IMG/VR virus record: IMGVR_UViG_3300029821_000004
Location: 1-61,729 of that record
DNA from: a virus
Length of the DNA: 61,729 nt
Reading direction: 5' to 3' (one strand)
The notes beneath the pieces are model-generated. The model did no database searches and was not told the origin of the DNA. It saw nothing but the letters and a program-made list of their open reading frames with translations. Each line of letters begins with the position of its first letter. Within the stretch, counting starts at the first letter, position 1. Below, piece by piece: positions 9,750-32,851 of the stretch. The translations under genes and the position numbers were made by a program.

Positions 9750-9768
9750 AAAAGTTAAATAATTGATA

Positions 9769-9782
9769 TTGACAAATGTCAA
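9769..9782. promoter_or_regulatory. Palindrome TTGACA-AA-TGTCAA in divergent late promoter region A
   Basis: Read directly. A similar TTGAC-ATAA-GTCAA lies at 32911-32924. Confidence 0.35.
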
Positions 9783-9800
9783 TGTAAGTTTTAGATAAAA

Positions 9801-9817
9801 CTCCACAGATTGTGGAA
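9801..9817. promoter_or_regulatory. Conserved near-palindromic motif CTCCACAGATTGTGGAA (core TCCACA-N3-TGTGGA)
   Basis: It matches 32852-32868 except for one base and shares an AAA 5' flank. It is centred between divergent start codons 9749 and 9871. Confidence 0.5.
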
Positions 9818-9870
9818 TTAATAATATGGTTATCCGTACTATTGTACAGTACACACTAAATTAGGATGAG

Positions 9871-10479
9871 ATGTTGACAGCAGCGATAATAGCAGGATTA
9901 GCCTCTGCAGCCGTTTCAGGGCTTGGGGCGTATAAATCTGCACAAGCAAACAAAAGAAATCAGGGGCTACTTAATAATATGGGAGACGAATACAAGTCTG
10001 ACTATATGAAAGAGTATTATCGGGGAACTTTAGAAAACCCCGGATCTAAGGCGTATCTAAAAAGACTCGACCAACAGCTTCGGGACAGAACTAAGGCGAC
10101 TGAAAATACAGCAGCAGCTACCGGAGCTACACAAGAGAATGTTCTTGCAGCAAAACAAGCCAACAATGAGGTTATGTCAAATGCAGTCGGAGACCTTGTT
10201 CAGAACGAAGATTATCGCAAACAGAACATCAAAGAGAGATATTTCCAAAGAAAAGCAGGGTTGGATCAGGCACAAATGGGTATTAACTCCCAACAAGGGC
10301 AGAATTGGGCTACACTAGCCTCTAATATTGCCGGTGCAGGAAGCTCTTTGGCGAATGTTTATTTACAATCCGGGCAAGGGTTTATTCCCAAAGCACCAAA
10401 TCAAGGAGAGATAATCCAAAACCAACTCGGCAGAATAGGAACAGAGACTAAGTTTAAGACTCCGGCAAAAAAATATTAA
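9871..10479 (+). CDS. Hypothetical protein, putative internal virion protein
   Basis: 202 aa with a Gly/Ala-rich hydrophobic N-terminus and a Q/N-rich body. It is the first gene of the operon carrying the giant ORF and the portal. Confidence 0.5.
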   Translation: MLTAAIIAGLASAAVSGLGAYKSAQANKRNQGLLNNMGDEYKSDYMKEYYRGTLENPGSKAYLKRLDQQLRDRTKATENTAAATGATQENVLAAKQANNEVMSNAVGDLVQNEDYRKQNIKERYFQRKAGLDQAQMGINSQQGQNWATLASNIAGAGSSLANVYLQSGQGFIPKAPNQGEIIQNQLGRIGTETKFKTPAKKY

Positions 10480-10480
10480 T

Positions 10481-11464
10481 ATGGCAAAGCAAGAGAATAA
10501 ACTAAGGACAACAGTTGCTAAGACTGTCAACCCTAATCCTCTCCCAGAGGTGCAGCAAATACAGCCTGACACCACTCCTTTTGTATATACACCCGGGACA
10601 AGTGTTTTAGATATCATTAAGCAAGGCAAAAGACAAGAAGAGGTATATCAAGCGCAAGAGGTAGATCTTAAAAAACAAGCCAAGCTAAACGCTTATATGG
10701 ACTTCTTTAAATCTTTAGGAGGTCTGGCCGGTGGTGGTTGGGCCAATGTACAACAATACCAACCTTCCCCTTACTTAACTCAGGCCTTTGGGAAGATTGA
10801 CCAACTAAGACAAGACAAGCAGACTTCTCAGCAATATTATGATGAAATGGCCCGTAGAGGTCAAAAAGAAGATTATAACACCCAATTATCAGCCTATAAT
10901 CGTTCTCAGGATAAGAATTTCCAGATACAGAAAGCAAATACTGACGCTCTAAACAGAAGGAACCTCGAACAATATAAAATGGGAGCAGAGAAAGTTACTA
11001 CCATAGACGATCCATTAGCAGAAAAAAGAGCCGAAACATCCGCTTTTAACGCACAAACCGCAAGGATAAGAGCAGAGAAGGGGCCACAATCACAAAATAA
11101 AGCTGAAAAGAAAGAGGCCGAAGAGAAGGAAGTCATTTATACTTTAAATAAACCGGAAGGTTCTACTCAAATAACCAAAGAGAGAGCGACCAAGTTAGTT
11201 GAGAGAGTTGAGAAAGACCTTAAAGACAACACTAAAATCTTATCTCCGGAAGAAGAACAAATCAGAGAGGCGTTAAAAGATGCTAAACTTGATAAGAAAG
11301 CACTTATAAAAGCTATTGACCTGATTAGGAAATACGATAAGACGGGTAAGTATAAAGGATATTGGATTGAGCAGAAGAAAGAAGATACTGCCCCGAAATC
11401 TTTTTTACCACAAAGCCCCAAAACTCAGTCAAACACCCCTAAGAAATCACTATTACCAAAATGA
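10481..11464 (+). CDS. Hypothetical Lys/Glu/Gln-rich protein, putative internal virion protein
   Basis: 327 aa. ATGA overlap with the giant ORF start. Confidence 0.5.
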   Translation: MAKQENKLRTTVAKTVNPNPLPEVQQIQPDTTPFVYTPGTSVLDIIKQGKRQEEVYQAQEVDLKKQAKLNAYMDFFKSLGGLAGGGWANVQQYQPSPYLTQAFGKIDQLRQDKQTSQQYYDEMARRGQKEDYNTQLSAYNRSQDKNFQIQKANTDALNRRNLEQYKMGAEKVTTIDDPLAEKRAETSAFNAQTARIRAEKGPQSQNKAEKKEAEEKEVIYTLNKPEGSTQITKERATKLVERVEKDLKDNTKILSPEEEQIREALKDAKLDKKALIKAIDLIRKYDKTGKYKGYWIEQKKEDTAPKSFLPQSPKTQSNTPKKSLLPK

Positions 11465-14400
11465 TAGACAACAATAAAAGAGGACAGCTCTACGATAATC
11501 TCATAGGTACGGGTAGGGTAAATCAGGAGCAGATAGGAACCAAAGATGAGTTTCTTTCTGCAATAGGTGATCGTGTGAAGGCTTCTGAGTTTCACAAAAA
11601 CTTACTTACTGTCTTTGATAAAGAAGAGGTCGGAGATGAACTTTCTTTCCTTGCATCCATAGAAGAGGATTTTATGCCAAATGATCCGGTTAATAAGTTT
11701 ATGGCTAAACAACCTCAGGGAGTAGTGGGAGCAATGAAAACAAAGATGGGAGAGCCAAGAATGAAAGACGGCCTTCCTGTTCAGGAGTCTATCCCCTTAG
11801 AAGTAGATGAGCCGGACCAAACTGATTACCCCACACCACAATCTTTGCCCGAAATTGACAACCAGATTGAACAATTAAGCCAAGAGGATAAGGGTTTTAT
11901 TAATATCTATCGTGATGTAAAAAAGAAAAAAGAGGGCGATTATCAGGAAATGGCAGCTCTTGGCCGGGAAGGTAAGTCTATGAACCTCTTTAACGTGATT
12001 ACCAAACCCAAACTCTCAAAAGAGGAAGAGGCCTTTTATACAGAAAACAGAGAAAGAGGCGACCAGATGCTTGACAGAGAAAAAGCTCTGTACCTACAAA
12101 AAGACTTTTTAAGACTAAAAGAGAACCTCGAAAAGTACGATAGTAAAGATAGTGGACTAAAGACTTTCTGGAAGGGACTCACACAAACAGGACTTTTAAA
12201 AGATTTCCTCTCATTAGGCCAAGTGGAACTACAAAGAAACCTCGATGTAATGGGAGTCTTTAATAAGGCCGTAGAAGAGCCTGAAAAACTCACTAAGGAG
12301 GAAGAAAGGCTACTCACTTTATATAAAGAGTGGGATAACGCTTCTAAACAAAAAACAGATTTCTGGTACACAGCCGGGCAATCTTCTCAGATTATGGGAG
12401 AGTTTATTGCAAATATGGTTGGTGCTAATATAGCTGCAGGAGGATTAAGGGCCGGAATGAGGTCTGCCTTTAATGTAGCAACAAAGGAGTTTCTTAAAGG
12501 GGCGGGGAAAAAGGTTATTGCAGCCAATATTGGCAAAAAATTAGGTGAAGCAGCTATCTTTAATGTGATGGCTCTTCCTTCCCGGACTACATTTTATAAA
12601 GAGTTTACCGGCAAATCGCTTGAAGGGTACGGAAAGAATCAGTACGGGGAATACGAAAATACCGGCTCAATAGGAAAAGACCTTTACGAATCTTCCATTA
12701 GAACTTTTATGGAATATTTTGCTGAGGAATATTCTACCTCAGTTTCCGGTGGTTATGCTACCAACCTTTTAAAAAGTAAAGCAGGAAATAAATTACTTGG
12801 GAACACCTTTGAAAAACTAAGTAAAATAACCGACAATCCGGCCTTTAATCAGGTTACTAAGGTAATGAATTACGCCAATATAGGCAATGTGCCTGAGGAG
12901 ATGTTTGAGGAAGTTCTAACCCAAGCAGGGAATGGACTCTTTTTATGGAGTAAAGACGATATCGCCCAATTAGCGGATCCTGATTTTTACAAATCTATTG
13001 CAGTAAGTGTTATTGCTCTGCAGGGGGCAATTACCGGAACACAATTAGTTGCCGGTGGAGTAGGGAATAAGATTGAAAAGAACAGAATAAACAGACAAGC
13101 CACAAGGTCGATAAATGAACTGAATACCTTAAATGTTACAGACGAATCCCTGATAAATCAGATATCACTTTTATCGGAAGATCTACAAAAAGGCGAGTTT
13201 GCAGATACCGAGGGAAGAATAGAGTTGGGACCAATCTTAACTAAGTTAGAAGATATACGAAACAACCCACAAGTAACAAGCGAAGTTTTAGCTGCATCTA
13301 CCAAAGCAGTTATGGATAACGCAAGGAAATACGGAACCTATACAGGAATTGAAGCTATGGCCGTAGAATCTATTGGGGAGTTTTCACATAAAAGAACCGG
13401 GAATGTTATTATAGCAAAACGAGGGGAGGAAACATTTTATATTTTAGATGAGCTCCCTCAGGAAGAAGGCAGGGCTATTATGGTAGCCAGACCACTTGAA
13501 GGAGGCGAATCTGTTTCAATAAATTCAATAGAGTTTGACGACTTTCAGGTTGTACCTAAACAGGAGTTTTTAGAATCTTGGTTACAAGGTAGAGAAATAA
13601 TCGAACCGGCTATTGCAGAACAAGAACAAGAGGAAGCTATTGTACAAGAATCTTTGCAAGAAAACCCTGTAATCGAACCACAGATAGGAAATGGATACCT
13701 TTTAGCTGGGGAGCCTGTAAGTGTAATTGATATTTCCGATGAAGGAATAGGAGTACAAGACAGAGAAGGAGGAATGCACATAGTTGACATTTCCGAACTG
13801 ACCGAGATACCTCAATTAGCTAAACAAGTAGCAGAGCAGCAAGTACAAGTACAGGAACAGCCACAAGTACCTATTGACGAAAAAGGAGTAATAGACTACT
13901 CTCAAATAACCTCTCCCGAACTTTACGCACAAGCCTTAAATGACGAATTTGGGGAAGAATCTATCACTATGATAGACGAACTTATAGCCGAGCAGCAAGA
14001 CCTTCTAAAAAAGGCTGAAAAGGGCTCTACAATCGAAAGAAAAAGAAGCGAGAGAATAATCAATGCCGAGATTGAGAAACTTAATCAGGTGAGAGGTATT
14101 CTTGTTCCGCAAGAGGCGGAAGCACCGATTGAGAAAGTGCCTATAAATATTGAATCGGAAGTAGTTGAAGATTTACCAGAGGTAGAACAAAAACCCGTAC
14201 AAGAAGAACTCCCGGAGATAACTAAGAAACCTTTATCTGAAACAGAAAGACGAAACAAACTCGTTGATGATGTTCGCGCCTACAATAAACTATCCTCTGC
14301 CAAGAAAAAGAAATTTAACCAAGTAGGACTTTTAAGAACTACAAATGAGTTGGGGTTTGTATTTGGTTACGATAAGGGCGGAAACATAACTATCAAGACC

Positions 14401-17400
14401 AAAGAAGGAAAAACAGTAACCAAGGTCGCTGATAAACAAAGCAAGGAACAGACAGAATCTCACAAAGGGCTCTCGGACTATTCAGACGAGATGCAGCAAG
14501 TAATGTTACTATTCTTGAATAACCCCGAATCTTTAGTAGGATTAAGCGGAATAGGTAAAGCACAAACAGAACAAGGGATTAAGAATATACTTGCAGCAAA
14601 AAAGACAGTAGCTGCCAATGCTTTACTTGACCAATTAGAGAGTGATATTCAGTTTGGTTGGGTTACAGTTAATGATTATAAAACAGGACAAAAAGCAGAT
14701 GTGGAGATTGGCGAATATTTGCTTTTATTTGTATCGGAAATTGAGGCGATAAACGAAGATGCTACCGAACTTAATGACCTCCCGGACTTTGAAGCTATGG
14801 ATGCTTTGGAGGATATGCCAGAAGATATTTTTGGCGTATATGAAGATATGCCAGACTTTGAAGAAGAAATAATAAATACACAAAATAATGAACAAGCAAG
14901 AGAGATTACAGAGAATCAAGACGAATCTCAAGCTGATGTTCCTATTCAAATGCAAGGAGAAGGGGATATCGCCAGAGGTGAGCAACCTGACACCGGAATT
15001 GAGGCAGGAGATGAAGCAAGAGTACCGCAACAGACGAGGCAGATAACACCTCAGTCTATTGAGATTGAAAAACTACAAAAAGACCGGGAAGCTGCAATCG
15101 CAGAGAAAAACCGGCTAATAAAAAACAATGTTGACAGAGTAGGTTTATTTGGGGACACCAAAATAGATCCTAACGACCTATTTGAAGGGGCAGGGTTTGA
15201 TCCCACCGCTTCTCAACCTCTTATTGATAAGCAAACCGAAGTCATAAAAGAGATTGACCGCAAGATTGAAGTCTTAAAAAAGAACGAAGCAGCCGGTATT
15301 GAGGAAGCTAAGGGGCAGCAGTCTATTGAGGATAAACTTGCCGAAGAAGAAGCTAAAGTAAACCTTAATCCGAGTGAGGGGCAAAAGGAAGCGGGTAACT
15401 ATAAAAAAGGACATATCACTATCCAAGGTTTTGATTTGACTATTGAGAACCCAAAAGGCTCTCAAAGGTCTGGCGTTGATGAATCAGGTCGTGAATGGAG
15501 TCAAATCCTAAATAATACCTACGGATATATCTTAGGCACAACAGGAAAAGACGGAGGGCATATTGATGTGTTCTTAGGGGATAACCTTGAATCAGACCGA
15601 GTGTTTGTAGTTGACCAGATAAACAAAGATAAATCATTTGATGAACATAAAGTAATGTTAGGCTTCGATACTATTATTGAAGCAGAACAGGCCTATCTCT
15701 CCAACTATGAAGAAGGATGGCAGGGGTTAGGCAATATCACTCAGGTTCCTATTGAAGATTTTCGGAAGTGGACTGAATCAGGAACAAGAAAAATTAAGCC
15801 TTTTGCGGAATATAAACAAGTAAAAGACCAACCAAAAGCGGAAGAGGTACAACCCGAGCAGGGAGAGGTTGAGGATGCACCTGAACGCTCTGTAAGTAGC
15901 AATAGGGTAAAGGCAGTAGAAACTGAAGAAGGGGAAATAGCCATAGTAGATAATTCTATTCAACCCGATATAGACAATAAGGCGGGGGAGATAGGAGAAG
16001 AAATGTCGGAAGCAGATATAAAAGAGGGAGAAGAAACCCTTAGTAAGATGCAAGACTTTGGCCAAAAAATTGGTATGGCAAGAAAAGATACTGCCGAAAG
16101 AGGGTTTACTCTTAAAAGAGGAAAAGGGGAAAAAGAAGCTCCGGGATGGTCGAAAAAGTACAAAATATTCAAGCAGGAGAAAGGCACATCATATTCAGAT
16201 TGGAACACGATAGAGGGTAAGTATTCTGTGAACATTGTTAGTGGTAATTTCTTCAAGACACTACAAAAGAACTTTAACACAGAGGAAGAAGCTATGGCAG
16301 CTATCCCAATGATAGAGGTATCGAGAAATCATAGAGTTTACCAATCAAAAAAAGAAGATGAATATTCAATATATCGAAAATGGAGTAGTGGTAAGTTGTG
16401 GGAGATAAAAAAAGGATTTAAAAGCAGGGAAGAGGCGTTAATGTATATGGCAAAAAACGCTGAGGAGATTATTGGCTACAAAGTTGGTAGAGTAGAAAGG
16501 CCACATTTAGATAAGATAGAAAGAGAGGGAGTTGAAAGAAGAAAGGGCAATGTTACTCCTGAGCAGTTTATGGAAACCTTCGGGTTTAGGGGAGGCGAAT
16601 TTGGGAATTGGGTAGCAGCAGACGAAAGACAGTCGATGCTTAATTTCGCTTTTGACGCTCTCTTAGATATGGCTGATATAATCGGGGTATCTCCAAGAGC
16701 CTTATCATTAGGGGGTAGGTTAGCTATTGGTTTTGGCAGTAGGGGACAAGGGCTATCTGGAGCAGCAGCGCATTTTGAGCCAGAAAGAGGGGTTATTAAC
16801 CTTACTAAAATAAGTGGGGCCGGATCTCTTGCTCACGAGTGGTTTCACGCTTTTGATTCATATTTTGGTGTAGTTGGTAGAAAGGGATTTATTCCCAATC
16901 AAGAGGGAGTTATGCCTGAGCCTTCTCGTGAAAGAGATTATTTAAGTGGGGACTATAACTCTAATCCTTATGTGCGCAAAGAGGTTAAAGATGCTTGGAG
17001 GCAAGTGTGGGAGACAATGAGGTATAAAAAAGAGTTGTCTGAGTATGATATGACTCGACTACAAAGACAATATGATTCAGCAATAAATTCTTTAAATAGC
17101 TCACTAAAGACAGCAAGAGCTTGGATGGAAAGAGATAGGACTTATGGACTGAGAAAAAAAGCAGCAACGCCTGAGCAATTAGCAAAATGGGATAGTCTCG
17201 CAGAAAAGGCGAATAAGTTTGAATTTGGTAAGGTGCAACCTAAAAAAACCAAGAAAAAATACTCATTTGAGAATGAATATCAACTCCAAAGAGAACTACA
17301 AGATCTATATAAAGAAGTTACCGGCAGAGAGAGCGGACAGCTCGAATACGGAGAATTTAGAAATATAGAACTAAATAGAGAACTTATCCAAAAAGCAGAG

Positions 17401-20400
17401 AAGGATAAGACATTTGAGGCGAGGAAGAATACTACATTTTATAATGGAAGTAAGGATATGGATGCTTCAAGAGTAAGTTCTTATTGGGGTACTAATCTTG
17501 AAATGGCAGCAAGGGCGTTTGAGGCCTATGTGGATGATAGAATAAAGGAAGCGGGGGCAAGGAACGACTATTTAGTGCATTCGGTAAATAATTACATATA
17601 CGAGGTGCTTTATGATGCAAAACCATACCCGGAAGGAGAAGAAAGACAGAACATAAATAAAGCATTTGATAACCTATTTAAGGTATTGGAAGAAAAGATA
17701 GACGAAGAGGGTAATACTCTTCTTTATCGCACAAGCGACAATACCGACTTAACAGATTTTAAACGAGCTCAATTTAATATCATACAAGCAACTAATCCGA
17801 TGCTTGATGATTATCATACCGGAATAAGGAGCGTAGAGGATATTTATACATTCGAGGAGGCATATCGGAAAGATATAGACACAGATAATTTTATGCTATC
17901 TCCTGACTATAAACAGAAAGATGTAGAAGATGCCCTAGAAAGCGGAAGTATTACAATATACTCCTCAAAACCTATACAGAACGGAGTATTTGTTACTCCA
18001 AGTAAAATGGAAGCAGAAGCGTATTCAGCTAATGGGAAAACTTACTCTAAAATAGTAGCTTTAAGTGATGTTGCTTGGATAAATAATTACGAGGGGCAAT
18101 ATGCAAAACAAGACACTAATCTTTATCGCACCATAGGCGAACGAGGCGTATCTAACCAATCCGAAGAAGCTATCATAAGACTTGATAACTTGAAAGTAGC
18201 AAGAGAAATGGAGACTCAAAACAAGTCCCAAAAACAAATCAAACTTGCGACAGGATGGGAGAGAGGCAAAGATACTAAATGGAGGTATGAAGTTGAGGAT
18301 GATATTACTATTAAAAAAATACCAACTTTGGAGTTTCCACCTAAGTTTCATAAATTTGACGAAATATTTGAGAGTAAGACCTTATTTAAGCAATACCCTC
18401 AAATAAAGGATATAAAGGTTGTATTTATTGATAAGCCAAATGGTGGATTTGGTTCATTTACACCGATTGCTGACATTTTAGAATTAAATATAAATGAAGG
18501 ATTATTACAGAGGCTCTTGCGTGGACTACGCAGATCCACTACAAGAGTGGAAACCTCAGAAAATAGAGGAAATGACCAAAGTAGAAATGATTATGCAGAT
18601 GTTCTGGGACAATCCCTTGTTCACGAAGTACAGCATATTATTCAAATGTATGAAGGTTTTACCCAAGGCAGTCGTACAGAGGATATACAAGCACTTTATC
18701 CGGAACTTGTCGTGGAGCGACTTAAAGCTAATGAGTCAATGGGAGAGCCAACGGATGATGAAGGCGTGTTTGGAAGCAGTGGCACAAGGGCGGCAAGAGA
18801 TATATATTACAAAACCGCTGGGGAGGTAGAGGCAAGAAATGTAGCAAGGCGTTTAGATATGCCTTTACAAGAAAGATTAAGCACTTTACTTTCCGAAACA
18901 GAGGATGTTTCAAGAGAAGATCAAATCATTTTAGGGGAACAATTAAGTTCAGGACTCCTTCTGAGAACCCCTTATTTCTACTCCCCAACGGAACAGGCCT
19001 TAAATTCAATCAAACAAGAAAAAGCAACTCCCGAGCAATGGAGGGCTATGTTGCTCAAAAACGGAGCGAAACAGGCTGAAATGGACTGGATGGGATTTGA
19101 CGAATTTAGTCAAGACAGGAAAAGTCTAACTAAAGCAGATATTCAAGAGTGGATTGACCAGAATAAGATTGAGATAGAGGAGGTTGAGAAAAGACAAGAG
19201 AGTGGTTCTATAACAAATGAATTAACTGATAATGCAAAAGAAGAACTCGAAAGACTGCAAGAAATTGAACAACGTTGGTTATCTATTGAATCAGCACAGG
19301 TAAATGGTTATGAATTAACTAAAAAAGATCAAGAAAGATTAACGGAGTATGAAAATGAATTTGAAGATATATCAGAGGTTAGTGATAAAATAAATGATCT
19401 TCAAAACGATGCAAATAACTATAAACTTGACGAAAATGGCGATACCAAATACTCCCAATACCAACTCCCCGGAGGAACCAATTACAAAGAGTTGTTATTG
19501 ACGATGCCTTCAAAATTGGAAAAAGAGAAGAGAAGGCAAGAAAACGCAAACGAGTTTATAAATATTGAAGAAGGAAAATACCAAGACGACTTCCACTCCG
19601 GTCACTGGGATGAACCAAACATCCTTGCTCATATAAGATTCAACGAGAGAGAAGTAAACGGAGAAAGGATACTATTCTTAGAAGAGATACAATCAGATTG
19701 GGCTCAGAAAGGGAAGAAGGATGGGTTTGTAAATGATAGGGATAAGTCTATCTATAATTTTGCAAAGTCAATCTATAATATAAAGATAGCTGCACTACGA
19801 AAGCAAATATCACAAGAAGAGGCTGAGCGAAAACTATTATCAGAGAAAGTATTATCAGAATCCCAAGGGATAACAGAGCAGGAAATAAATCAATTTCTCT
19901 ATAAATATGGAGATTTTACAATGCCATACGCAGCAGCAGTCCCCGATATGCCTTTCAAGAATACCGACCAATGGGTAAACCTTGCGCTCCGTAGGATGAT
20001 GATTTTCGCAGCAGAGAACGGATTTGACAGGATAGCTTGGACAACGGGCGATATTCAAGCAGAGAGGTACGATTTGAGTAAGCAGGCGAAGCGCATACAG
20101 TTCTTTAAGCAAAAGGATGGCACATACCGTGGTATAGCATACGATAAGGATGATGATGTTGCTATGAATTTTAATGGAGATGCAAATAAACTTGAAACAA
20201 TTATAGGCAAAGAGGCTACTCAAAAAATAGTTGAAAAAGCAGAAGAGACGGGGAGGCAATATTATCTAAATAACCAAGATCTCAAAGTAGGCGGACAAGG
20301 TATGAAAGCCTTTTACGACCAGATACTCCCTGCACAAGCAAATAAGATAGGCAAAAAGTTTAACGCAAAGGTTGAGAGTGTTGAAATTCCTGCAAGTGAG

Positions 20401-23400
20401 GTAGCTTTTAATGAGAATAAAGAACTCGATCCTGCCGACTTTACACCTAAAGCACAAGAGTACACAAGCAGATACGAAGAGTCCATTGAGGAAAACGGAG
20501 ATTATTCTGCAGAGGACTACATTGACGATATGGCTAAAGAAGGTTTTATAGTTGAAATGGACTTCAATTCAGGAGAGCCTATCTCAGTAATGAAAGCCTC
20601 TAAAGGAAATACTACTCCTGTTCAATCAATCCCAATAACACAAGGGATAAGAGAACAAGCTCAGATTGGTATGCCTCTCTTCTCTATTCTTGGCGAAAAA
20701 GGGGCAAAAGCACTTGATATAGCCAATAATTCAGAGGTTATATTAAACAACCTTGCCATTGCAAAACAATTCACAAAAGACGGCAAAGATGCAAAAACCA
20801 TTCGTCTTGCTACGGGTTGGGAAATGGGTAATGATAAGAAGTGGAGATACGAGATACCTGATGATATTAAGATAAAGCAACTACCAATCGTAGAGGGTAA
20901 TATTCCAAAATTTACTACCTTTGGGGAAATTATTGAAAGTAAGAGTTTACTCACCGCTTATCCTGAGTTAAAAGATGTTCAGGTAATAGTGGAAAATGTG
21001 CCGAGTAAAAACTCATTTGGCTCATACACAGAATTAACTAATACATTATCAATAAATGCGAGTAAAGAAGTATATAGACTTTGGCTGCAGGGACTCAATT
21101 TGGGGACTACTCGGAATGGAGGAGCCACCACAACCACCACCAACAAAGGAGGAATTGATTATGAGACTTTTTTGGGACAATCGGTGGTTCACGAGATTCA
21201 ACATATTATTCAGTCTTATGAGGGCTTTACCAGAGGGAGTAGTACAGAATATATACTCTCGTCTTACCCGGAACCTATCCTACAAGGAGATGTTGATAGT
21301 GGAGGATTGGCAAATGCAGAGGAACGGAAAGCTGCTCGAAGAGCATCTGCGACAGAAATCTATAAAAAACTCTCAGGCGAAGTAGAGGCTCGTAATGCCG
21401 TAGAGCGAATGAATTACTCTGTGGAAGAAAGGCGACAAACCTTACTTTCTGAGACCGAAGATGTGGCAAGGGAAGACCAGATATTGCTTGAAAGCGCAAT
21501 CTTAGGAACCGCCAATTCAGAAATACAAAACACATCAGTATTCAATTTAGCAGAAGAAGCAAATAGACTAGCCTCTAATTTAGGGGTTAAGGTTACTATT
21601 AAATTAGACGCTTCCGATATGCCACCTATGAGGATTGCTTTAAGAAAAACAAAAGGGTGGTTCGATCCAAAAACTAAAGAGATAGTCATTATTTTAAGCA
21701 ATCACGACAGCTTAAAAGATATTCAAGAGACTATCTTCCACGAAGCAGTAGGGCATATGGGGTTAAGAGGTCTTTTAGGGGCGAAATTTAACCCTGTAAT
21801 GAATCAGGTATTCGAGTCTATGCCAAGAGATGCTAGGGCTACATTTTTAGCTAAATACGGAAACAAGGCACTAGCAGCAGAAGAGTACCTTGCAACCTTA
21901 GCAGAACAAGATATTAACCCGACTCTTTTACAGAAGATAATCTCAATAGTAAGAGATGCTTTTAGAGCAATAGGCATAGATTTACGCTTCAATGATAGCG
22001 ATATGCTCTTTATGCTATGGAGGTCAAAAAACAGACTAAAACGCAACCCTACGATTGTAGATACAATAAAAGACTTTAATCGGGTGAAAGAGGTTAAAGA
22101 GAGGCTGAGGGAAGGAGTTATTCCGGAAACAATCTCTATTATCGGAGTACAAAAACCAACCCGCAATAGTGAAGGTAAATACATTCACCCAACAGAAGAG
22201 GGGATAAGGAACTTTTATAAGTGGTTTGGGGATTCAAAAGTGGTGGATAATGAAGGGAGGCCGTTGGTGGTTTATCACGGGACTAATAGTGAATTTAATG
22301 AGTTTAAAAATAAGAAAGATGTTGGATTGTATGGTAGTGGGTATTATTTTACTCAATATAAAGAGACGGCAAACCAATACGGGAACATAAAAGAATATTA
22401 TTTAGCGTCTGAAAAACCAATAATTATAACGCCACAAAAAACCCCATCTATTTTATATAAATTAATAAATGCAAGTGGAAAATATGATTATGGGTATACA
22501 GGAGTTATTGTAAAGGATAATCAAAAAGGGTTGGAATCTATAACCGTTTTTTCTCCCTCCCAAATCAAATCAATAAACAATCAAGGCACATTTGACGGGG
22601 ATAATAACGATATCCGTTTCCGAGAATCATCAGGGCTTGGATTGATTAACAATACAGATTGGCAAGATCAAGTATGGGAACAAAATAAAGATTTAATCGA
22701 GGTTGAGAATTTGGGAATATTTCAACGCAATCAAGAAACGGAAAATATACCTGAAAATTATTCGTCTCAGCACTTTACTTATGAACCGGGATTAAGAGAT
22801 ATTTATGCTAATCCGAAAGCGTATAATGAAGTAGATGCCCTCTATAAAAAACAAGGATATTTAGATGAGGGGTATGTTGAAAATTATTATAACCCAGAAG
22901 ACTTCCAACTAAAAGCAGGGTATGTGGCAGCTATTCAAGCGTCAGAAACGGGCAACCCAAAACAAGTCGGAGGTTCAGCAGACGATACTTACGCTATAAC
23001 CTTTATAGGGGAGAAAATTGCAGATGTTTACGATGGAGAAATAGTAAGGCCTATTCGACAATTAGAAGTGTGGCAAAAACAAGGTAGTAGCTACACTAAG
23101 CTATTAGATAATAGCCTCCGTTTCCGAGATGATGATAACGCCATTCTAGATACAAACGATATCCAACTAACCGCCTCTCAGAAGTTCATTCAAGCAATGC
23201 AAGACCGAATGATGTCGGGGCGTATCTTGATTGATGAGATACAAAAAAGAGGTGGGAAAGTAGGGCAGATGTCAAACTTTGTAACCGAAGAAACTCGTTC
23301 ATCTTCAAGAGGAAAGTATGAGATTGATAATTTCCTAGACAACTATTTTAAACCTTTGACAAACAAAGTCAAAGACTTAATGAACAAGGGAGGCGTTTCT

Positions 23401-26253
23401 CAATTTGATATTGAGGATTATATGAAAGCCAAACACGCTCCCGAAGTAAACAAAAGACTAACTAGCGCAGAAGTTTATAAATCGGTTCTCACAAATTATC
23501 AGTCAGAGATAACTAAACTCAAAAACGCAAAAGCAGACCTGACCACCGAGCCTGAGATTAAGGCAATGAACGAAGCAATAGAAACCGCTATAAGGTTGTC
23601 TAATTTCTATCAAGCGAAAGAGAATAGGGAATTGGTTGATGGATTGCTTTCTAATGCTTACGACAATAAGTTTAACGGAGAAGAACTGAACCCTATTGAA
23701 GTTGGGGGTGCTGAGTTTAATCTTGCAAAAGATATTCAAAAGAGGTTTGTCTCCCGAATGAAAAAAGTTGAGAAGAGCGAAGATGGAAACATACGCTCAG
23801 GAAAGGGAGATGCAGAAGCTAAAGCAATAGTAGAAGGTTTTGAGGGCAGATTTGAACCAGAAGATATTACAGACCTCTGGGATAAGATAAGAGCAGCTAC
23901 AAGGTTCTCTTTAGATATTTCGTTTAAGTACGGGCTAATCAGTAAAGAGACTTACGAGGCTTCTAAGTCTATGTATGAATACTATGTTCCATTAAGAGGG
24001 TGGGAGGTTACCGAACAAGTAGACTACTCCAACATCTTTGGAAAGGAGTATATGGGGCACGAGATTCTAAACCCTGTAAATAAACAAGCAAAAGGAAGGC
24101 AATCAGAAGCAGACGCACCTCTAGGATATATAGGCTCAATGGCTGAGACTGCTATCATTGCAGGGAATAAAAACGAAGTTCGTAAACAGGCTTGGCGTTT
24201 GGTTATGAATAATGCTGAGATGACAGACCTTTTCCTTATAAAAGATGCTTGGGAAGTAAATATAGGAACACCGGAAGAACCTAGTTGGGAGCAGCAATAT
24301 GAAGTTCCGACTCAGGAATTATTAGAAACCGGTATGGCTCGTAAATTACCTCTAAATAATAAGTACACTTGGCACAAAACTAAAGCTCAGTTAAATATGC
24401 ACCAAGTACCCGTAATGATTGACGGAAAAAGGGTAGTGATTGAATTTAAAGGAAACTTAGGTGCAGAAGTAGCCGGGGCCATAAATGGGGATAAAGTTTT
24501 AAGATGGAGGGGAACTGATAAGATAGGAAACATAACCCGAGTAATGGCTGCCTTAAAAACTTCTAAGAACCCTGACTTTATGCTGACCAACTTTACCAGA
24601 GACTTTTTCTTTGGAAATATGGCTTATTACATTCGTGGAGGAAACCCTATTGCTCTTACCTCAAACTTAGGTAGGGCTTGGAAAGCTATACATTTAGATA
24701 TATCAGGCAAGGAAAATAAAGATCCTTATATGAGAGAAATGCGAGAATCTTTCAAGCAAGAGGGAGCGCAAACCGGATATGCGCATATGCTAGGACAACC
24801 AGACTTTAAAAAGAAGGCTGAGAAACTAATCAAAGAGGCTAACGATGCACAAGGATCTCCTTCTGTTTATGCAAGAAAATCATTCGAAGCAATGAATCAC
24901 GGACTAGATTACTTAGCCGTAATGTCAGAGGATGCTATGAGGTTTGCAATATTCATAACTGAGATTGAACGCTTAATGAAGGAAGCAGGAGTAGATACAC
25001 CAACCGCCTCAATGAAAAAACAAGCTGCCCTTGCTGCAAAAGAACTCACAACGAACTTTAATAAAAAAGGGAATTTTAGTAGTCAAATAGGCACATTCTA
25101 CGCTTTCTTTAACGCATCTGTTCAGGGAACGACTAATTATATCAAATTAGCCAAAGAGAACCCGGCACGATTTATTAAAGCGAACCTATTTATTTTAAGT
25201 TTAAGAGTTGCCCTTCACGCTTTATGTAGTATGCTTGACGGAGATGATGACGACTATGAGGCTTTGTCAGATTTTGTCAAAGAGAACAATCTGGTTATCC
25301 CAATCACAAACGGAGAATATATTACCATACCTCTTCCTCACGGAGCCAGAGCTTTGACTTCGATAGGGAATTATGCAGTAGATGTGATTAATGGAACGAG
25401 AGAGGCAGACGAGGCTATGAGTGATTACATTAAAAACTTAATATCCGAATCTTCTCCAATCAATTTAGTGGGTATGGATAAAAGTAAATTCATTATGCCT
25501 CAAAATATCAAAGAAGGAATCTTAACCGCACTACCGACAGCTTTAAGACCAATAACAGAAGCAGGACTTGGAGTTGACTTTATGGGGAACCCGATAGAGA
25601 GAAAGAACTTTGTAATAACCTTAGAAGGTAAGGTTCCAAGGTTCCAAAACGCTTATCCAAGTACCAATAAACTTTTAGTAGGAGGGACTAAGTTTTTAAA
25701 CAAGGTTTGGGGAGGTACAGATTACCGCTCTTCCGGGAAGCAAATTGAGGATGGAATGGTAGTAGATAGTTGGAAAGGAATCTTTGATATAAGTCCTGCA
25801 TTGACTGAACATATTATTGAAGGTTATCTTGGAGGTTTAGGGAGGTTCTTTAACGACACCTATAAGACTGCTCGTAGTTTAGTTCAAGGCGAGGTTCCGG
25901 CAAAACAAAATATCCCGGTAGTAAGGAGGCTTTACCAAGAGCCTTACCAATCTATGCCTTGGGAGAGATATTATGAAACACGCCAGAGGGTTGATGAGAT
26001 AAATTTCTACAAAACCCAAGCTAAGAAAAACGGGGATGAGAAGTCTTTTAGCGATTTGAATAGTCTTTATAACAACACAATTTCCGATACTTTCGATAAA
26101 TATAGTAAGGTGATTACCCTCTTTAGTAAAGAGATGAAAACCCTTGATAAAAAGAGCCCGGAATATAAAGAAAGGAAAACCGCTATTGATGCTCTGGTTA
26201 ATAAGCTAGATGTAGAAATAAAAAATATTGACAAACGATTTAATAAGAAATAA
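11461..26253 (+). CDS. Giant polyvalent (multi-effector) protein, 4930 aa, probably virion-packaged
   Basis: A single uninterrupted ORF carrying:
- a PPase-like segment, about 15394-15726
- HEWFH zincin at 16834-16848, in an FGFRGGEFGNW...INLTK...SLAHEWFHAFD context
- a duplicated HE(V/I)QHIIQ module, 18121-18935 and 20671-21495
- ETIFHEAVGHMGLRGL zincin at 21739-21756
- an ART-like segment, 22183-22625 (VVYHGT, GSGYYFT, SQIKS..GTFD..DIRF)
- a hydrophobic C-terminal part, about 25095-25240. Confidence 0.9.
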   Translation: MIDNNKRGQLYDNLIGTGRVNQEQIGTKDEFLSAIGDRVKASEFHKNLLTVFDKEEVGDELSFLASIEEDFMPNDPVNKFMAKQPQGVVGAMKTKMGEPRMKDGLPVQESIPLEVDEPDQTDYPTPQSLPEIDNQIEQLSQEDKGFINIYRDVKKKKEGDYQEMAALGREGKSMNLFNVITKPKLSKEEEAFYTENRERGDQMLDREKALYLQKDFLRLKENLEKYDSKDSGLKTFWKGLTQTGLLKDFLSLGQVELQRNLDVMGVFNKAVEEPEKLTKEEERLLTLYKEWDNASKQKTDFWYTAGQSSQIMGEFIANMVGANIAAGGLRAGMRSAFNVATKEFLKGAGKKVIAANIGKKLGEAAIFNVMALPSRTTFYKEFTGKSLEGYGKNQYGEYENTGSIGKDLYESSIRTFMEYFAEEYSTSVSGGYATNLLKSKAGNKLLGNTFEKLSKITDNPAFNQVTKVMNYANIGNVPEEMFEEVLTQAGNGLFLWSKDDIAQLADPDFYKSIAVSVIALQGAITGTQLVAGGVGNKIEKNRINRQATRSINELNTLNVTDESLINQISLLSEDLQKGEFADTEGRIELGPILTKLEDIRNNPQVTSEVLAASTKAVMDNARKYGTYTGIEAMAVESIGEFSHKRTGNVIIAKRGEETFYILDELPQEEGRAIMVARPLEGGESVSINSIEFDDFQVVPKQEFLESWLQGREIIEPAIAEQEQEEAIVQESLQENPVIEPQIGNGYLLAGEPVSVIDISDEGIGVQDREGGMHIVDISELTEIPQLAKQVAEQQVQVQEQPQVPIDEKGVIDYSQITSPELYAQALNDEFGEESITMIDELIAEQQDLLKKAEKGSTIERKRSERIINAEIEKLNQVRGILVPQEAEAPIEKVPINIESEVVEDLPEVEQKPVQEELPEITKKPLSETERRNKLVDDVRAYNKLSSAKKKKFNQVGLLRTTNELGFVFGYDKGGNITIKTKEGKTVTKVADKQSKEQTESHKGLSDYSDEMQQVMLLFLNNPESLVGLSGIGKAQTEQGIKNILAAKKTVAANALLDQLESDIQFGWVTVNDYKTGQKADVEIGEYLLLFVSEIEAINEDATELNDLPDFEAMDALEDMPEDIFGVYEDMPDFEEEIINTQNNEQAREITENQDESQADVPIQMQGEGDIARGEQPDTGIEAGDEARVPQQTRQITPQSIEIEKLQKDREAAIAEKNRLIKNNVDRVGLFGDTKIDPNDLFEGAGFDPTASQPLIDKQTEVIKEIDRKIEVLKKNEAAGIEEAKGQQSIEDKLAEEEAKVNLNPSEGQKEAGNYKKGHITIQGFDLTIENPKGSQRSGVDESGREWSQILNNTYGYILGTTGKDGGHIDVFLGDNLESDRVFVVDQINKDKSFDEHKVMLGFDTIIEAEQAYLSNYEEGWQGLGNITQVPIEDFRKWTESGTRKIKPFAEYKQVKDQPKAEEVQPEQGEVEDAPERSVSSNRVKAVETEEGEIAIVDNSIQPDIDNKAGEIGEEMSEADIKEGEETLSKMQDFGQKIGMARKDTAERGFTLKRGKGEKEAPGWSKKYKIFKQEKGTSYSDWNTIEGKYSVNIVSGNFFKTLQKNFNTEEEAMAAIPMIEVSRNHRVYQSKKEDEYSIYRKWSSGKLWEIKKGFKSREEALMYMAKNAEEIIGYKVGRVERPHLDKIEREGVERRKGNVTPEQFMETFGFRGGEFGNWVAADERQSMLNFAFDALLDMADIIGVSPRALSLGGRLAIGFGSRGQGLSGAAAHFEPERGVINLTKISGAGSLAHEWFHAFDSYFGVVGRKGFIPNQEGVMPEPSRERDYLSGDYNSNPYVRKEVKDAWRQVWETMRYKKELSEYDMTRLQRQYDSAINSLNSSLKTARAWMERDRTYGLRKKAATPEQLAKWDSLAEKANKFEFGKVQPKKTKKKYSFENEYQLQRELQDLYKEVTGRESGQLEYGEFRNIELNRELIQKAEKDKTFEARKNTTFYNGSKDMDASRVSSYWGTNLEMAARAFEAYVDDRIKEAGARNDYLVHSVNNYIYEVLYDAKPYPEGEERQNINKAFDNLFKVLEEKIDEEGNTLLYRTSDNTDLTDFKRAQFNIIQATNPMLDDYHTGIRSVEDIYTFEEAYRKDIDTDNFMLSPDYKQKDVEDALESGSITIYSSKPIQNGVFVTPSKMEAEAYSANGKTYSKIVALSDVAWINNYEGQYAKQDTNLYRTIGERGVSNQSEEAIIRLDNLKVAREMETQNKSQKQIKLATGWERGKDTKWRYEVEDDITIKKIPTLEFPPKFHKFDEIFESKTLFKQYPQIKDIKVVFIDKPNGGFGSFTPIADILELNINEGLLQRLLRGLRRSTTRVETSENRGNDQSRNDYADVLGQSLVHEVQHIIQMYEGFTQGSRTEDIQALYPELVVERLKANESMGEPTDDEGVFGSSGTRAARDIYYKTAGEVEARNVARRLDMPLQERLSTLLSETEDVSREDQIILGEQLSSGLLLRTPYFYSPTEQALNSIKQEKATPEQWRAMLLKNGAKQAEMDWMGFDEFSQDRKSLTKADIQEWIDQNKIEIEEVEKRQESGSITNELTDNAKEELERLQEIEQRWLSIESAQVNGYELTKKDQERLTEYENEFEDISEVSDKINDLQNDANNYKLDENGDTKYSQYQLPGGTNYKELLLTMPSKLEKEKRRQENANEFINIEEGKYQDDFHSGHWDEPNILAHIRFNEREVNGERILFLEEIQSDWAQKGKKDGFVNDRDKSIYNFAKSIYNIKIAALRKQISQEEAERKLLSEKVLSESQGITEQEINQFLYKYGDFTMPYAAAVPDMPFKNTDQWVNLALRRMMIFAAENGFDRIAWTTGDIQAERYDLSKQAKRIQFFKQKDGTYRGIAYDKDDDVAMNFNGDANKLETIIGKEATQKIVEKAEETGRQYYLNNQDLKVGGQGMKAFYDQILPAQANKIGKKFNAKVESVEIPASEVAFNENKELDPADFTPKAQEYTSRYEESIEENGDYSAEDYIDDMAKEGFIVEMDFNSGEPISVMKASKGNTTPVQSIPITQGIREQAQIGMPLFSILGEKGAKALDIANNSEVILNNLAIAKQFTKDGKDAKTIRLATGWEMGNDKKWRYEIPDDIKIKQLPIVEGNIPKFTTFGEIIESKSLLTAYPELKDVQVIVENVPSKNSFGSYTELTNTLSINASKEVYRLWLQGLNLGTTRNGGATTTTTNKGGIDYETFLGQSVVHEIQHIIQSYEGFTRGSSTEYILSSYPEPILQGDVDSGGLANAEERKAARRASATEIYKKLSGEVEARNAVERMNYSVEERRQTLLSETEDVAREDQILLESAILGTANSEIQNTSVFNLAEEANRLASNLGVKVTIKLDASDMPPMRIALRKTKGWFDPKTKEIVIILSNHDSLKDIQETIFHEAVGHMGLRGLLGAKFNPVMNQVFESMPRDARATFLAKYGNKALAAEEYLATLAEQDINPTLLQKIISIVRDAFRAIGIDLRFNDSDMLFMLWRSKNRLKRNPTIVDTIKDFNRVKEVKERLREGVIPETISIIGVQKPTRNSEGKYIHPTEEGIRNFYKWFGDSKVVDNEGRPLVVYHGTNSEFNEFKNKKDVGLYGSGYYFTQYKETANQYGNIKEYYLASEKPIIITPQKTPSILYKLINASGKYDYGYTGVIVKDNQKGLESITVFSPSQIKSINNQGTFDGDNNDIRFRESSGLGLINNTDWQDQVWEQNKDLIEVENLGIFQRNQETENIPENYSSQHFTYEPGLRDIYANPKAYNEVDALYKKQGYLDEGYVENYYNPEDFQLKAGYVAAIQASETGNPKQVGGSADDTYAITFIGEKIADVYDGEIVRPIRQLEVWQKQGSSYTKLLDNSLRFRDDDNAILDTNDIQLTASQKFIQAMQDRMMSGRILIDEIQKRGGKVGQMSNFVTEETRSSSRGKYEIDNFLDNYFKPLTNKVKDLMNKGGVSQFDIEDYMKAKHAPEVNKRLTSAEVYKSVLTNYQSEITKLKNAKADLTTEPEIKAMNEAIETAIRLSNFYQAKENRELVDGLLSNAYDNKFNGEELNPIEVGGAEFNLAKDIQKRFVSRMKKVEKSEDGNIRSGKGDAEAKAIVEGFEGRFEPEDITDLWDKIRAATRFSLDISFKYGLISKETYEASKSMYEYYVPLRGWEVTEQVDYSNIFGKEYMGHEILNPVNKQAKGRQSEADAPLGYIGSMAETAIIAGNKNEVRKQAWRLVMNNAEMTDLFLIKDAWEVNIGTPEEPSWEQQYEVPTQELLETGMARKLPLNNKYTWHKTKAQLNMHQVPVMIDGKRVVIEFKGNLGAEVAGAINGDKVLRWRGTDKIGNITRVMAALKTSKNPDFMLTNFTRDFFFGNMAYYIRGGNPIALTSNLGRAWKAIHLDISGKENKDPYMREMRESFKQEGAQTGYAHMLGQPDFKKKAEKLIKEANDAQGSPSVYARKSFEAMNHGLDYLAVMSEDAMRFAIFITEIERLMKEAGVDTPTASMKKQAALAAKELTTNFNKKGNFSSQIGTFYAFFNASVQGTTNYIKLAKENPARFIKANLFILSLRVALHALCSMLDGDDDDYEALSDFVKENNLVIPITNGEYITIPLPHGARALTSIGNYAVDVINGTREADEAMSDYIKNLISESSPINLVGMDKSKFIMPQNIKEGILTALPTALRPITEAGLGVDFMGNPIERKNFVITLEGKVPRFQNAYPSTNKLLVGGTKFLNKVWGGTDYRSSGKQIEDGMVVDSWKGIFDISPALTEHIIEGYLGGLGRFFNDTYKTARSLVQGEVPAKQNIPVVRRLYQEPYQSMPWERYYETRQRVDEINFYKTQAKKNGDEKSFSDLNSLYNNTISDTFDKYSKVITLFSKEMKTLDKKSPEYKERKTAIDALVNKLDVEIKNIDKRFNKK

Positions 26254-28159: not shown

Positions 28160-28162
28160 GTT

Positions 28163-28648: not shown

Positions 28649-28654
28649 ATTATT

Positions 28655-29297: not shown

Positions 29298-29307
29298 AAT
29301 AAAGTAT

Positions 29308-29565: not shown

Positions 29566-29575
29566 AATTTACTTT

Positions 29576-29866: not shown

Positions 29867-29887
29867 ACCATTTATTTATTATATAGC

Positions 29888-30103: not shown

Positions 30104-30106
30104 ATT

Positions 30107-30463: not shown

Positions 30464-30488
30464 ATATGTATTTATTAGTTGTTATCCC

Positions 30489-32811: not shown

Positions 32812-32851
32812 TAATTATAATTCCCCACAAAGATAAGTAAATATTTTTAAA

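Follow-up and report, generated by a model that had tools for sequence, protein, structure and literature searches.

In the sections of their paper covered here, Iyer et al. (2017, J Bacteriol 199:e00245-17) name InPase and LPD38 as phage-specific domains of polyvalent proteins, together with multiple zincin peptidases, including HExxxH and HExxH + Asp clades, and an ADP-ribosyltransferase (ART) of the H-Y-D type; they also propose that such proteins are autoprocessed by their metallopeptidases, at a cleavage site that those sections leave unnamed. In phage phi24B, gp47 (2811 amino acids (aa); LPD5, LPD1, LPD38, MuF-C) is abundant in virions and absent from all cryogenic electron microscopy (cryo-EM) reconstructions, and its authors proposed it as an encapsidated ejection protein (bioRxiv 10.64898/2026.04.10.717836). 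In phage JC1, gp69 (4515 aa) had the second-highest virion score by mass spectrometry (MS), with 51 unique peptides, gp67 and gp68 were also virion-associated, and the giant gene takes up 22.1% of a 61.2-kb genome (Viruses 2022;14:938). Phages N4 and DEV encode three ejection proteins in one operon, where the place of gp16 is held by a beads-on-a-string protein of ~3500 aa, present in ~4 copies per virion, unresolved in the capsid and thought to cross the tail unfolded; the largest ejection protein of the T7 type has been proposed to engage the inner membrane (Nat Commun 2026;17:7689). Here we analyze the gene for a giant protein of 4930 aa in the virus record IMGVR_UViG_3300029821_000004, whose whole stretch of 61,729 nucleotides (nt) is called the window below. 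Our results suggest that the giant is probably the capsid-packaged, ejected third protein of a three-gene operon led by a gp14-like protein, and that it would be the equivalent of gp16 in T7 and of the virion RNA polymerase (vRNAP) in N4.

The gene stands among the following neighbors, all on the same strand.

9871..10479, + strand: 202-aa T7-gp14-family-like internal virion (ejection) protein, with an N-terminal hydrophobic helix and 0 cysteines
10481..11464, + strand: 327-aa low-complexity charged protein in the putative second (gp15-like) position, with 0 cysteines and an ATGA overlap with the giant gene
11461..26253, + strand: giant polyvalent protein gene (4930 aa, 558 kDa, 1 cysteine)
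26255..28159, + strand: P22-like portal protein, 634 aa (PF16510, E = 1.5e-34; phrog_156, E = 3e-57)

The giant reading frame opens with ATG and contains 0 internal stops, which bears out the sequence-only reading of this DNA as to an uninterrupted 14.8-kb open reading frame (ORF) of 4930 aa that fills 24% of the genome. An ATGA at 11461-11464 contains both the stop codon of the upstream 327-aa ORF and the start codon of the giant gene, and the portal gene begins at 26255, 1 nt past the stop of the giant gene; the context of virion genes, with ATGA coupling and the portal directly downstream, had thus been recognized correctly, and only the gap to the portal, given as 2 nt, needs correction. 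An exact 127-bp direct repeat at the window ends (1-127 = 61603-61729) arises where the assembly of a circular or circularly permuted genome overlaps itself; the true genome is thus a 61,602-bp circle, 24.0% of which is taken by the giant gene. The exact protein occurs on four contigs of 61,743 bp, and the two of these that were read come from different samples, differ in circular permutation and are DNA-identical over the giant ORF. Since the ORF is DNA-identical on separately assembled, differently permuted contigs, an assembly chimera, which the sequence-only reading had named as the check to be run, is excluded. The accession numbers of the two samples are nearly consecutive, and a single study may have produced both; the contigs thus stand for one phage population assembled independently, not for two lineages. 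At the DNA level, no near relative was found among 50,697 phage records, the sole match being a weak one of 99 bp to phage BF1-TP2 (PQ571263), and a transfer RNA search of the window returned 0.

At the protein level, our search retrieved 415 relatives at E <= 1e-10, and modules were mapped on 119 giants. Among the relatives listed (120 of the 415), lengths range from 3,600 to 7,000 aa, and nearly all have InPase in their front part and LPD38 as the last domain. Contigs of 61-65 kb carry many of these giants. The backbone of the family consists of InPase (116 of the 119 relatives mapped), an HExxxH zincin module at aa ~3350-3550 (up to 111) and the last ~800-1000 aa (118-119), and the stretches between these parts are a mosaic of modules, each common to few relatives. 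Conservation across the family is highest in the C-terminal module: 118-119 of 119 relatives align over aa ~4150-4800, and the module is homologous to the C-termini of giants from Sepvirinae, Vibrio, Ralstonia and Burkholderia phages. The N-terminal 1250 aa gave 0 BLAST matches in the set of 119, and a word-indexed search with aa 1-900 found one protein only; exhaustive HMMER search recovered 76 representative relatives for the N-terminal ~1200 aa, a region that splits into five parts. Two earlier impressions have to be given up in view of these results. The ends of the protein had been said to match nothing, and they do have relatives, the C-terminal ~1000 aa more than any other part. The size had been called extreme; because the P0059 giant (6712 aa) takes 20.1 kb of a 61.7-kb contig and the JC1 giant 22.1% of its genome, it is typical of the family. 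Cultured equivalents of the giant are BF1-TP2 gp68, JC1 gp69 and POCJ13 gp71.

The relatives, Pfam searches, self-comparison and structure models give the following map of the giant.

11473..11685, + strand: N1, aa 5-75, small helical domain (predicted local distance difference test score (pLDDT) of the model 80-88; stand-alone versions of 70-200 aa exist)
11983..11997, + strand: junction-type motif MNLFN, aa 175-179, directly before N2 and within the low-pLDDT linker 161-181
12013..13815, + strand: N2, aa ~185-785, large helical domain and two small Tudor/SH3-like beta-barrels
13828..15030, + strand: N3 (aa ~790-910) and N4 (aa ~925-1190), two mobile modules recognized from relatives' matches
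15379..15774, + strand: InPase domain, aa 1307-1438 (Pfam PF18823, E = 9e-55), in 116/119 relatives
16030..17697, + strand: zincin peptidase 1 (HEWFHAFD, aa 1792; CLCA_X-like) and LPD1 (aa 2001-2079)
17719..17733, + strand: junction motif LLYRT, aa 2087
17755..18108, + strand: module 4, aa 2099-2216 (56% identity to a P0006 module; phrog_13543)
18118..18132, + strand: junction motif NLYRT, aa 2220
18121..18960, + strand: LPD23 and zincin peptidase 2 (HEVQH, aa 2388), first duplicate, from Pfam and self-comparison
18955..18969, + strand: junction motif LLLRT, aa 2499
18970..20676, + strand: module 6, aa 2504-3072, between the duplicated units, common to P0005, P0032 and P0058
20674..20688, + strand: junction motif PLFSI, aa 3072-3076
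20677..21489, + strand: LPD23 and zincin peptidase 3 (HEIQH, aa 3244), second duplicate, from Pfam and self-comparison
21508..22110, + strand: HExxxH zincin module (HEAVGH, aa 3427); up to 111/119 relatives align, consensus LHExVAHxGLR
22246..22590, + strand: ART-PolyVal, aa 3596-3710 (Pfam, E = 2e-16)
22609..22626, + strand: junction motif DIRFRE, aa 3717
22624..23112, + strand: module 10, aa 3722-3884, essentially without relatives among the top 119
23113..23130, + strand: junction motif SLRFRD, aa 3885, directly before the C-terminal module
23158..26250, + strand: C-terminal backbone module, aa 3900-4930, almost all-alpha, containing LPD38
25171..25242, + strand: hydrophobic (transmembrane-like) helix, aa 4571-4594, family-conserved
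25246..25923, + strand: LPD38, aa 4596-4821 (PF18857, E = 2e-30)

Judged by its domain content (InPase, ART-PolyVal, four zincin modules, LPD1, two LPD23, LPD38 and at least seven unnamed modules), the giant is a phage-type polyvalent protein sensu Iyer et al. 2017, the class to which the sequence-only reading had assigned it; the pyrophosphatase-like and ADP-ribosyltransferase-like segments recognized there correspond to the InPase and ART-PolyVal domains, and the C-terminal hydrophobic region to the conserved helix at aa 4571-4594. Within the N-terminal region, N2 is common to a subset of giants, near their N-terminus, and its matches in relatives begin at aa 181-194; the fifth part, after module N4, is the stretch before InPase. 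The region of zincin 1 is 40.5% identical (E = 3e-43) to POCJ13 gp71, a Sepvirinae giant, and in NCBIfam the HEWFH domain has a partial match, under the curated cut-off, to CLCA_X zincins. When the giant is compared with itself, the LPD23 and zincin unit proves to be duplicated, aa 2221-2491 against aa 3073-3343, at 45% identity.

The evidence that the giant is packaged and ejected comes from its homologs, from amino acid composition and from the operon. The phi24B record matches the C-terminal module, as POCJ13 gp71 does, and the C-terminal module of JC1 gp69 aligns to aa 4113-4908 with E = 3e-27. JC1 gp69 carries an SLT lytic transglycosylase domain at its N-terminus, and in the record of T7, gp16 is described as an internal virion protein that has an endolysin domain. 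Furthermore, fusions of InPase to portal proteins have been described (Iyer et al. 2017, J Bacteriol 199:e00245-17, sections covered here), and the recurrence of InPase on the capsid-interior C-terminus of portals counts for packaging.

The composition of the operon points the same way. The giant has 1 cysteine in 4930 aa against a background of 0.9% (P = 2e-18), and the two upstream proteins have 0 in 529 aa (P = 0.008), while the 13 other ORFs of the phage have 61 in 6750 aa (0.9%). Cysteine is likewise absent from JC1 gp67, gp68 and gp69 taken together (0 in 5221 aa) and from POCJ13 gp71 (0 in 2793 aa), occurs once in the 2261 aa of T7 gp14, gp15 and gp16, and has a family median of 0.15% over 148 giants. 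It may be that proteins crossing the oxidizing periplasm unfolded have been selected against cysteine; whatever its cause, the signature ties the operon to proven ejection proteins. Near-absence of cysteine could also offer a simple way to predict which proteins are ejected.

The leading gene of the operon probably links it to T7. Against a profile of three syntenic counterparts the 202-aa protein scores 68 bits, compared with at most 10.5 bits for 2000 shuffles, and its pairwise E-values against the syntenic counterparts run from 1e-16 to 6e-8. The Pfam family PF24072 (T7_gp14) is matched by two of the four syntenic small proteins, with a best E of 9e-8, and BF1-TP2 gp70 is a homolog of the 202-aa protein in the same position. 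The 202-aa protein is thus a probable member of the T7 gp14 family, transitively and by sequence, the link to T7 itself running through the Pfam model. In every relative examined a gene for 330-510 aa stands in the place of the 327-aa gene, which we take as a positional analogue only; the sequence-only reading had called this neighbor a putative internal protein. The order of a small protein, a 330-510-aa protein and a giant is found in the metagenomic relatives P0003, P0059 and P0002 as well as in BF1-TP2 (gp70/gp69/gp68) and JC1 (gp67/gp68/gp69). The portal gene follows the giant directly in P0003 and P0059, lies four genes downstream in P0002, and in BF1-TP2 is found ~4 kb downstream on the opposite strand. 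In the window, the large terminase (TerL) and SU10-type major capsid protein genes lie within 9 kb of the giant.

The conserved ends of the giant were modeled. For the C-terminal fragment, alignment to full-length relatives scattered the first 217 residues, and trimmed sequences were used instead. The AlphaFold2 model of the C-terminal module is almost wholly alpha-helical and of moderate confidence (pLDDT 63, predicted template modeling score 0.40). The helix at aa 4571-4594 is the only family-conserved hydrophobic helix of the module, with an alignment-mean Kyte-Doolittle value of 1.59, and is followed, at the start of LPD38, by an acidic GDDD run and a Y..LPE[YW].R.NNL motif; we infer that the helix would fit a membrane-engaging role. 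The model of the N-terminal 820 aa (pLDDT 67) shows the helical N1, disordered linkers, the large helical domain and the two Tudor/SH3-like barrels. Compared with the PDB, it gave only local Tudor/SH3-like matches to the small barrels, and its sole significant matches in BFVD are N-terminal fragments of other metagenomic podovirus giants.

We propose that a few copies of the giant would be enclosed in the procapsid and, on infection, leave the particle by way of the portal and short tail, before the DNA or together with it; in transit they would probably be mostly unfolded, one module following another like beads on a string. The C-terminal helical module of ~1000 aa, with its hydrophobic helix and LPD38, would then engage the envelope or inner membrane, in the manner of T7 gp16 or N4 vRNAP; the N-terminal helical module, too, is common to a subset of relatives. 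The middle modules (four zincins, ART, InPase and uncharacterized modules) would be carried into the cell as cargo, where some may act as enzymes.

Short motifs between the modules had been noticed in the sequence-only reading, and all five prove to be real and family-wide, at positions within a few nt of those reported. In the giant, [IL]RFR[ED] occurs twice where 0.013 is expected (0 of 5000 shuffles reach 2), and L[YL]RT four times where 0.10 is expected. Across the family we used a tight form, [DN][ILV]R[FY][RQSH], and a strict pattern, [DNEST][ILV][RLM][FY][RQSH], on 50 non-redundant giants, and defined a boundary zone by at least 3 all-vs-all alignment ends within +-12 aa, so that zones cover 12.9% of residues. 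Within such zones lie 31 of 49 copies of the strict motif (odds ratio (OR) 11.6, p = 3e-16) and 18 of 21 copies of the tight one (OR 40, p = 9e-14), compared with 0 of 21 for the reversed motif, 2 of 12 for a control with K or E at position -1, and 3 of 51 for a control in which A or G replaces the aromatic residue. The zones are set by alignment ends, which a conserved motif can itself influence, and these figures thus contain a mild circularity. Overall enrichment is modest: the strict pattern has 49 copies where shuffles give 22 +- 4.7, an excess of ~2.2-fold at ~one copy per protein, and its reverse has 21.

At positions aligned to the motifs of the giant, relatives carry similar strings even where the modules joined are different. 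DIRFQ joins ART to LPD23 in P0005, and NIRFRE follows the ART domain in P0010; in every aligned relative the ART domain is followed by N-x-G-x-F-x(4,5)-D-I-R-[FY]. The position of NLYRT (aa 2220), where 19 alignment ends fall within +-10 aa, is occupied in relatives by DIRFQ, DLLFRF, NIRFSL or LRFQL, before LPD23. After module 6 relatives have MPLFQR or LPLFNR, and ahead of the C-terminal module they have DIMFRD, with equivalents of SLRFRD at the same joint. Among the cultured phages, BF1-TP2 gp68 has two copies of [IV]RFRE, at aa ~1752 and ~2478, and POCJ13 gp71 has one VRFRD, near aa 581. Of the ten loose matches in the giant, five coincide with clusters of alignment ends, and a sixth (MNLFN, aa 175) lies in the low-confidence linker before N2. 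The Pfam models of the domains on either side do not include the motif. A fourth string of the L[YL]RT type, GLLRT (aa 966-970, window 14356-14370), is found within the N-terminal region; it precedes the start of some matches to module N4 (aa 971 in P0178) and may be another joint between sub-modules.

The junction motif is thus a real, family-wide and previously undescribed mark of module joints. In the sections of Iyer et al. 2017 covered here, neither an inter-module motif nor cysteine depletion is mentioned: 'linker' and 'cysteine' each occur 0 times, and 'cleavage site' only in the title of a reference. The motif could be a structural cap strand or a handling signal, which is as possible as a cleavage site. 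That it is a processing or handling signal, at which a 558-kDa polyprotein would be cut by its own zincins into a membrane-conduit part and free effectors, in the capsid or in the host, seems unlikely to us on the sequence data at hand. If true, the long-standing hypothesis of autoprocessing in polyvalent proteins would gain a concrete cleavage site. The motif delimits modules and makes the hypothesis of Iyer et al. directly testable.

As to the enzymes, all four zincin metal-site motifs are intact: HEWFH (aa 1792, nt 16834), HEVQH (aa 2388, nt 18622), HEIQH (aa 3244, nt 21190) and HEAVGH (aa 3427, nt 21739). The sequence-only reading had counted at least four HExxH sites, and all four are where it placed them; HEAVGH is of the HExxxH type, which leaves three HExxH, against 0.029 expected (0 of 5000 shuffles reach 3). 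By clade, HEWFHAFD belongs with HExxH + D+3 and HEAVGH with HExxxH. The signatures of the two named effector enzymes are both incomplete. In the ART domain, H3606 and Y3628/3629 are present and the strand-5 Asp is replaced by T3680 (codon ACA; window 22489-22512), while the Asp of the DG[VIL]I string is invariant in the seven relatives aligned over this position; the H-Y-D ART clade requires this residue (Iyer et al. 2017, J Bacteriol 199:e00245-17, sections covered here), and the His-Tyr-Asp triad is broken. In InPase, the signature DGDHxDV, at least 80% conserved in 73 relatives, reads DGGHIDV (D1364-G-G1366-H-I-D1369; window 15547-15570), so that D-x-D-x-x-D is incomplete too. T3680 and G1366 are both present in the independently assembled contigs. 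Judged from these residues, the ART and InPase domains of this phage may both lack activity, and this shifts weight to a structural or conduit role, or to the uncharacterized modules. The idea of a capsid-packaged, ejected multi-effector in the sequence-only reading is thus supported as far as packaging and ejection go, by MS on homologs and by cysteine depletion, and weakened in its multi-effector part. It is also a caution that a Pfam label alone is no proof of an active effector domain.

InPase itself has a single sequence match in the PDB, chain L of 9b41 (portal gp19 of Pseudomonas phage Pa193, residues 636-762; E = 1e-30). Pa193 is a myophage, and residues 529-765 of its portal, the C-terminal region, have no cryo-EM density; the structure of InPase is still unsolved. 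A PHROG family labeled 'DarB-like' matches aa 1172-1460, that is, the InPase region; identity with DarB was rejected, no methylase or helicase being found in the giant with Pfam or NCBIfam.

Several points weigh against the view of the giant as a packaged and ejected third protein. The virion evidence comes wholly from homologs, at 22-40% identity and in phages of Proteobacteria, and the giant genes of Sepvirinae and Lessievirus do not adjoin the portal. In Pfam the giant shows no lytic transglycosylase (SLT) domain. Profiles of its conserved ends match neither T7 gp15 nor gp16, nor any solved structure; the models of these ends are only of moderate confidence (pLDDT 63 and 67), the best Foldseek E for the C-terminal model against the PDB is 0.49, and a profile search of PDB sequences for the same module found nothing. 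In the operon, the 202-aa protein has no direct match to Pfam PF24072 at E <= 1, the four-sequence gp14-like profile fails to detect T7 gp14 above shuffles, and the 327-aa protein has neither similarity to its positional counterparts nor a family match. Homology of the giant to T7 gp16 was rejected, there being no profile, fold or PDB match, and the analogy kept: because neither end matches gp15, gp16 or a solved structure, we say that the giant works like gp16 or N4 vRNAP and do not file it as their homolog.

Other explanations share part of this evidence. The giant could be mainly structural here, an ejectosome or capsid-internal scaffold whose effector enzymes are decayed passengers, a reading we hold possible if doubtful. 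It draws on the replacement of the ART Asp by Thr3680 and of InPase DGD by DGG in independent contigs, and on a pattern of conservation that favors the C-terminal module, the HExxxH module and InPase over the variable middle. However, the four zincin motifs are intact, ~1,500 aa of uncharacterized modules may be active, the loss of single residues does not prove inactivity, and an intact 14.8-kb ORF argues for selection along the full length. CLCA-type zincins are self-cleaving, and the giant, with four zincin domains of which one is CLCA-like, might be a polyprotein cut at [DN]-Φ-R-[FY]-[RQSH] motifs by its own zincins or by another protease, in the capsid or after ejection. We consider this rather unlikely from what the sequences offer, even though the motif stands at joints whichever modules are joined, with zone statistics of 31/49 and 18/21 and controls at or below chance, and even though it lies outside Pfam models (its one model-covered copy being in a low-confidence linker) and autoprocessing had already been proposed, with no site given in the sections covered, by Iyer et al. 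2017. Several facts speak against cutting: N4 vRNAP, likewise equipped with a metallopeptidase domain, is packaged unprocessed (Iyer et al. 2017, J Bacteriol 199:e00245-17, sections covered here), and fragments of the giant are not reported for either phi24B or JC1 (bioRxiv 10.64898/2026.04.10.717836; Viruses 2022;14:938). With ~one copy per protein, moreover, many joints lack the motif, the boundary zones carry the circularity noted above, and the motif could equally be a cap strand or handling signal.

We regard it as very unlikely that the giant is a non-packaged anti-defense or host-takeover protein that acts in the cytoplasm and stands among virion genes incidentally. Detection in virions is known for homologs and not for this phage, and the PHROG families matched bear the labels 'DarB-like antirestriction' and 'endolysin', but those matches cover essentially the InPase region only, the homologs are virion proteins by MS, the gene is translationally coupled within the block from the gp14-like gene to the portal, and the cysteine depletion is that of ejection proteins. 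That the ORF is an assembly chimera or a set of fused genes has a negligible probability, with a DNA-identical ORF on two differently permuted contigs, the exact protein on four, 415 relatives that keep the same end-to-end order among those listed, and equivalents in cultured phages. Thus, packaging of the giant in the capsid and its ejection as the third protein of the operon is the explanation that we prefer.

The host of the phage is very probably a member of the Bacteroidales. A genome-collection scan with the portal returned nothing, and a scan with the gp14-like alignment found prophage copies in Parabacteroides distasonis, Bacteroides timonensis and an uncultured Bacteroides; we assign the host from these sequence matches and because BF1-TP2 infects B. 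fragilis. No integrase was found among the window ORFs scanned, while P0003, P0059, P0002 and BF1-TP2 have one each.

The rest of the genome contains the following features.

4342-4926, - strand: SAM (S-adenosylmethionine)-dependent methyltransferase
5660-6766, - strand: family-2 glycosyltransferase
6763-9357, - strand: 864-aa ORF adjoining the two, without a family match
26255-35106: head genes, comprising the portal (+), two small ORFs (+), a minus-strand block with the large terminase (30489-32537), and the SU10-type major capsid protein (33784-35106, +)
38251-41850, + strand: 1199-aa protein with a C-terminal Fib_succ_major domain (PF09603, E = 7e-22)
50397-60820, - strand: early/replication arm with an SMC/AAA_23-type ATPase, RecT, a metallo-beta-lactamase-fold protein, an N6/N4 DNA methylase, a Bro-N/KilAC antirepressor and a protein with pentapeptide repeats and DUF5758

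The block 4342-9357 is transcribed divergently from the ejection operon. The arrangement of the head genes is unusual and recurs in P0003 and P0059. From its C-terminal domain, the 1199-aa protein is probably a tail fiber or receptor-binding protein.

Our analysis places a large group of Bacteroidales (gut-type) podophages, with genomes of ~60-65 kb and hardly any annotation, in the genome-delivery framework of T7 and N4, and phages of this group spend 20-33% of their genome on one protein. The link between polyvalent giants and a gene of the T7_gp14 family, as well as the cysteine signature common with the T7 ejection proteins, goes beyond the published accounts covered.

Set beside the polyvalent proteins of Iyer et al. 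2017, in the sections covered, the giant agrees in joining unrelated enzymatic and LPD domains in one chain, in its multiple zincins, H-Y-D-clade ART, InPase and LPD38, and in lying among the virion genes of a portal-terminase phage. It differs in the substitution of the ART Asp and of one InPase Asp, and the operon of a gp14-like protein, a second protein and a giant is undescribed in those sections. With POCJ13 gp71 (2793 aa) it shares the HEWFH zincin (40.5%), LPD1 and the C-terminal LPD38 module (26% over ~850 aa); the giants of Sepvirinae (Stx phages), phi24B gp47 among them, in contrast, are of ~2800 aa, have neither InPase nor ART among their reported domains, are encoded by the last gene of the late operon and belong to phages of Enterobacteriaceae, and the small genes upstream of them are not detectably gp14-like. 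JC1, a Bcep22-like Burkholderia phage with a giant called 'DarB-like', is likewise a podophage of ~61 kb with a triad of 196, 510 and 4515 aa, a homologous LPD38 module and 0 cysteines, whereas the middle of its giant consists of SLT, an Eco57I-type methylase, an SNF2 helicase and LPD3, none of which is present here, its gp67 is not detectably gp14-like, and its giant gene is not adjacent to the portal.

The comparison with gp52, gp51 and the gp50 vRNAP of N4 and DEV is one of organization only: two small ejection proteins are followed by a giant multi-domain third protein, and N4 vRNAP is itself polyvalent, with a zincin domain (Iyer et al. 2017, J Bacteriol 199:e00245-17, sections covered here), but our giant has no RNA polymerase module (no match to an RNA polymerase family or in the PDB) and no sequence similarity to them. 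T7 gp14, gp15 and gp16 show the same order from small to medium to largest, a first protein that is probably, by transitive homology, of the same family, and near-zero cysteine; by contrast, our giant is 3.7 times as long as gp16, carries effector-type domains, lacks a transglycosylase and is not similar to gp15 or gp16.

The closest cultured relative of the operon is that of BF1-TP2 (PQ571263, host B. fragilis BL19), for which our literature search found no paper. In its record, gp70, gp69 and gp68 (7360-20126) are all annotated as 'hypothetical protein', and the large terminase is apparently annotated as 'tail spike protein', with an annotation note that cites a structure match to Terminase_6C. 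BF1-TP2 is temperate, with an integrase and a repressor, and its gp68 differs from our giant in having PBECR5 and in lacking the LPD23-zincin duplication. Its gp70 scores 144 bits against the family profile, and gp68 (3633 aa) has an InPase that is 66% identical, ART-PolyVal, the HExxxH module, LPD38 and the two [IV]RFRE motifs. Being cultured and having the same operon, BF1-TP2 offers an experimental entry point to this group of phages.

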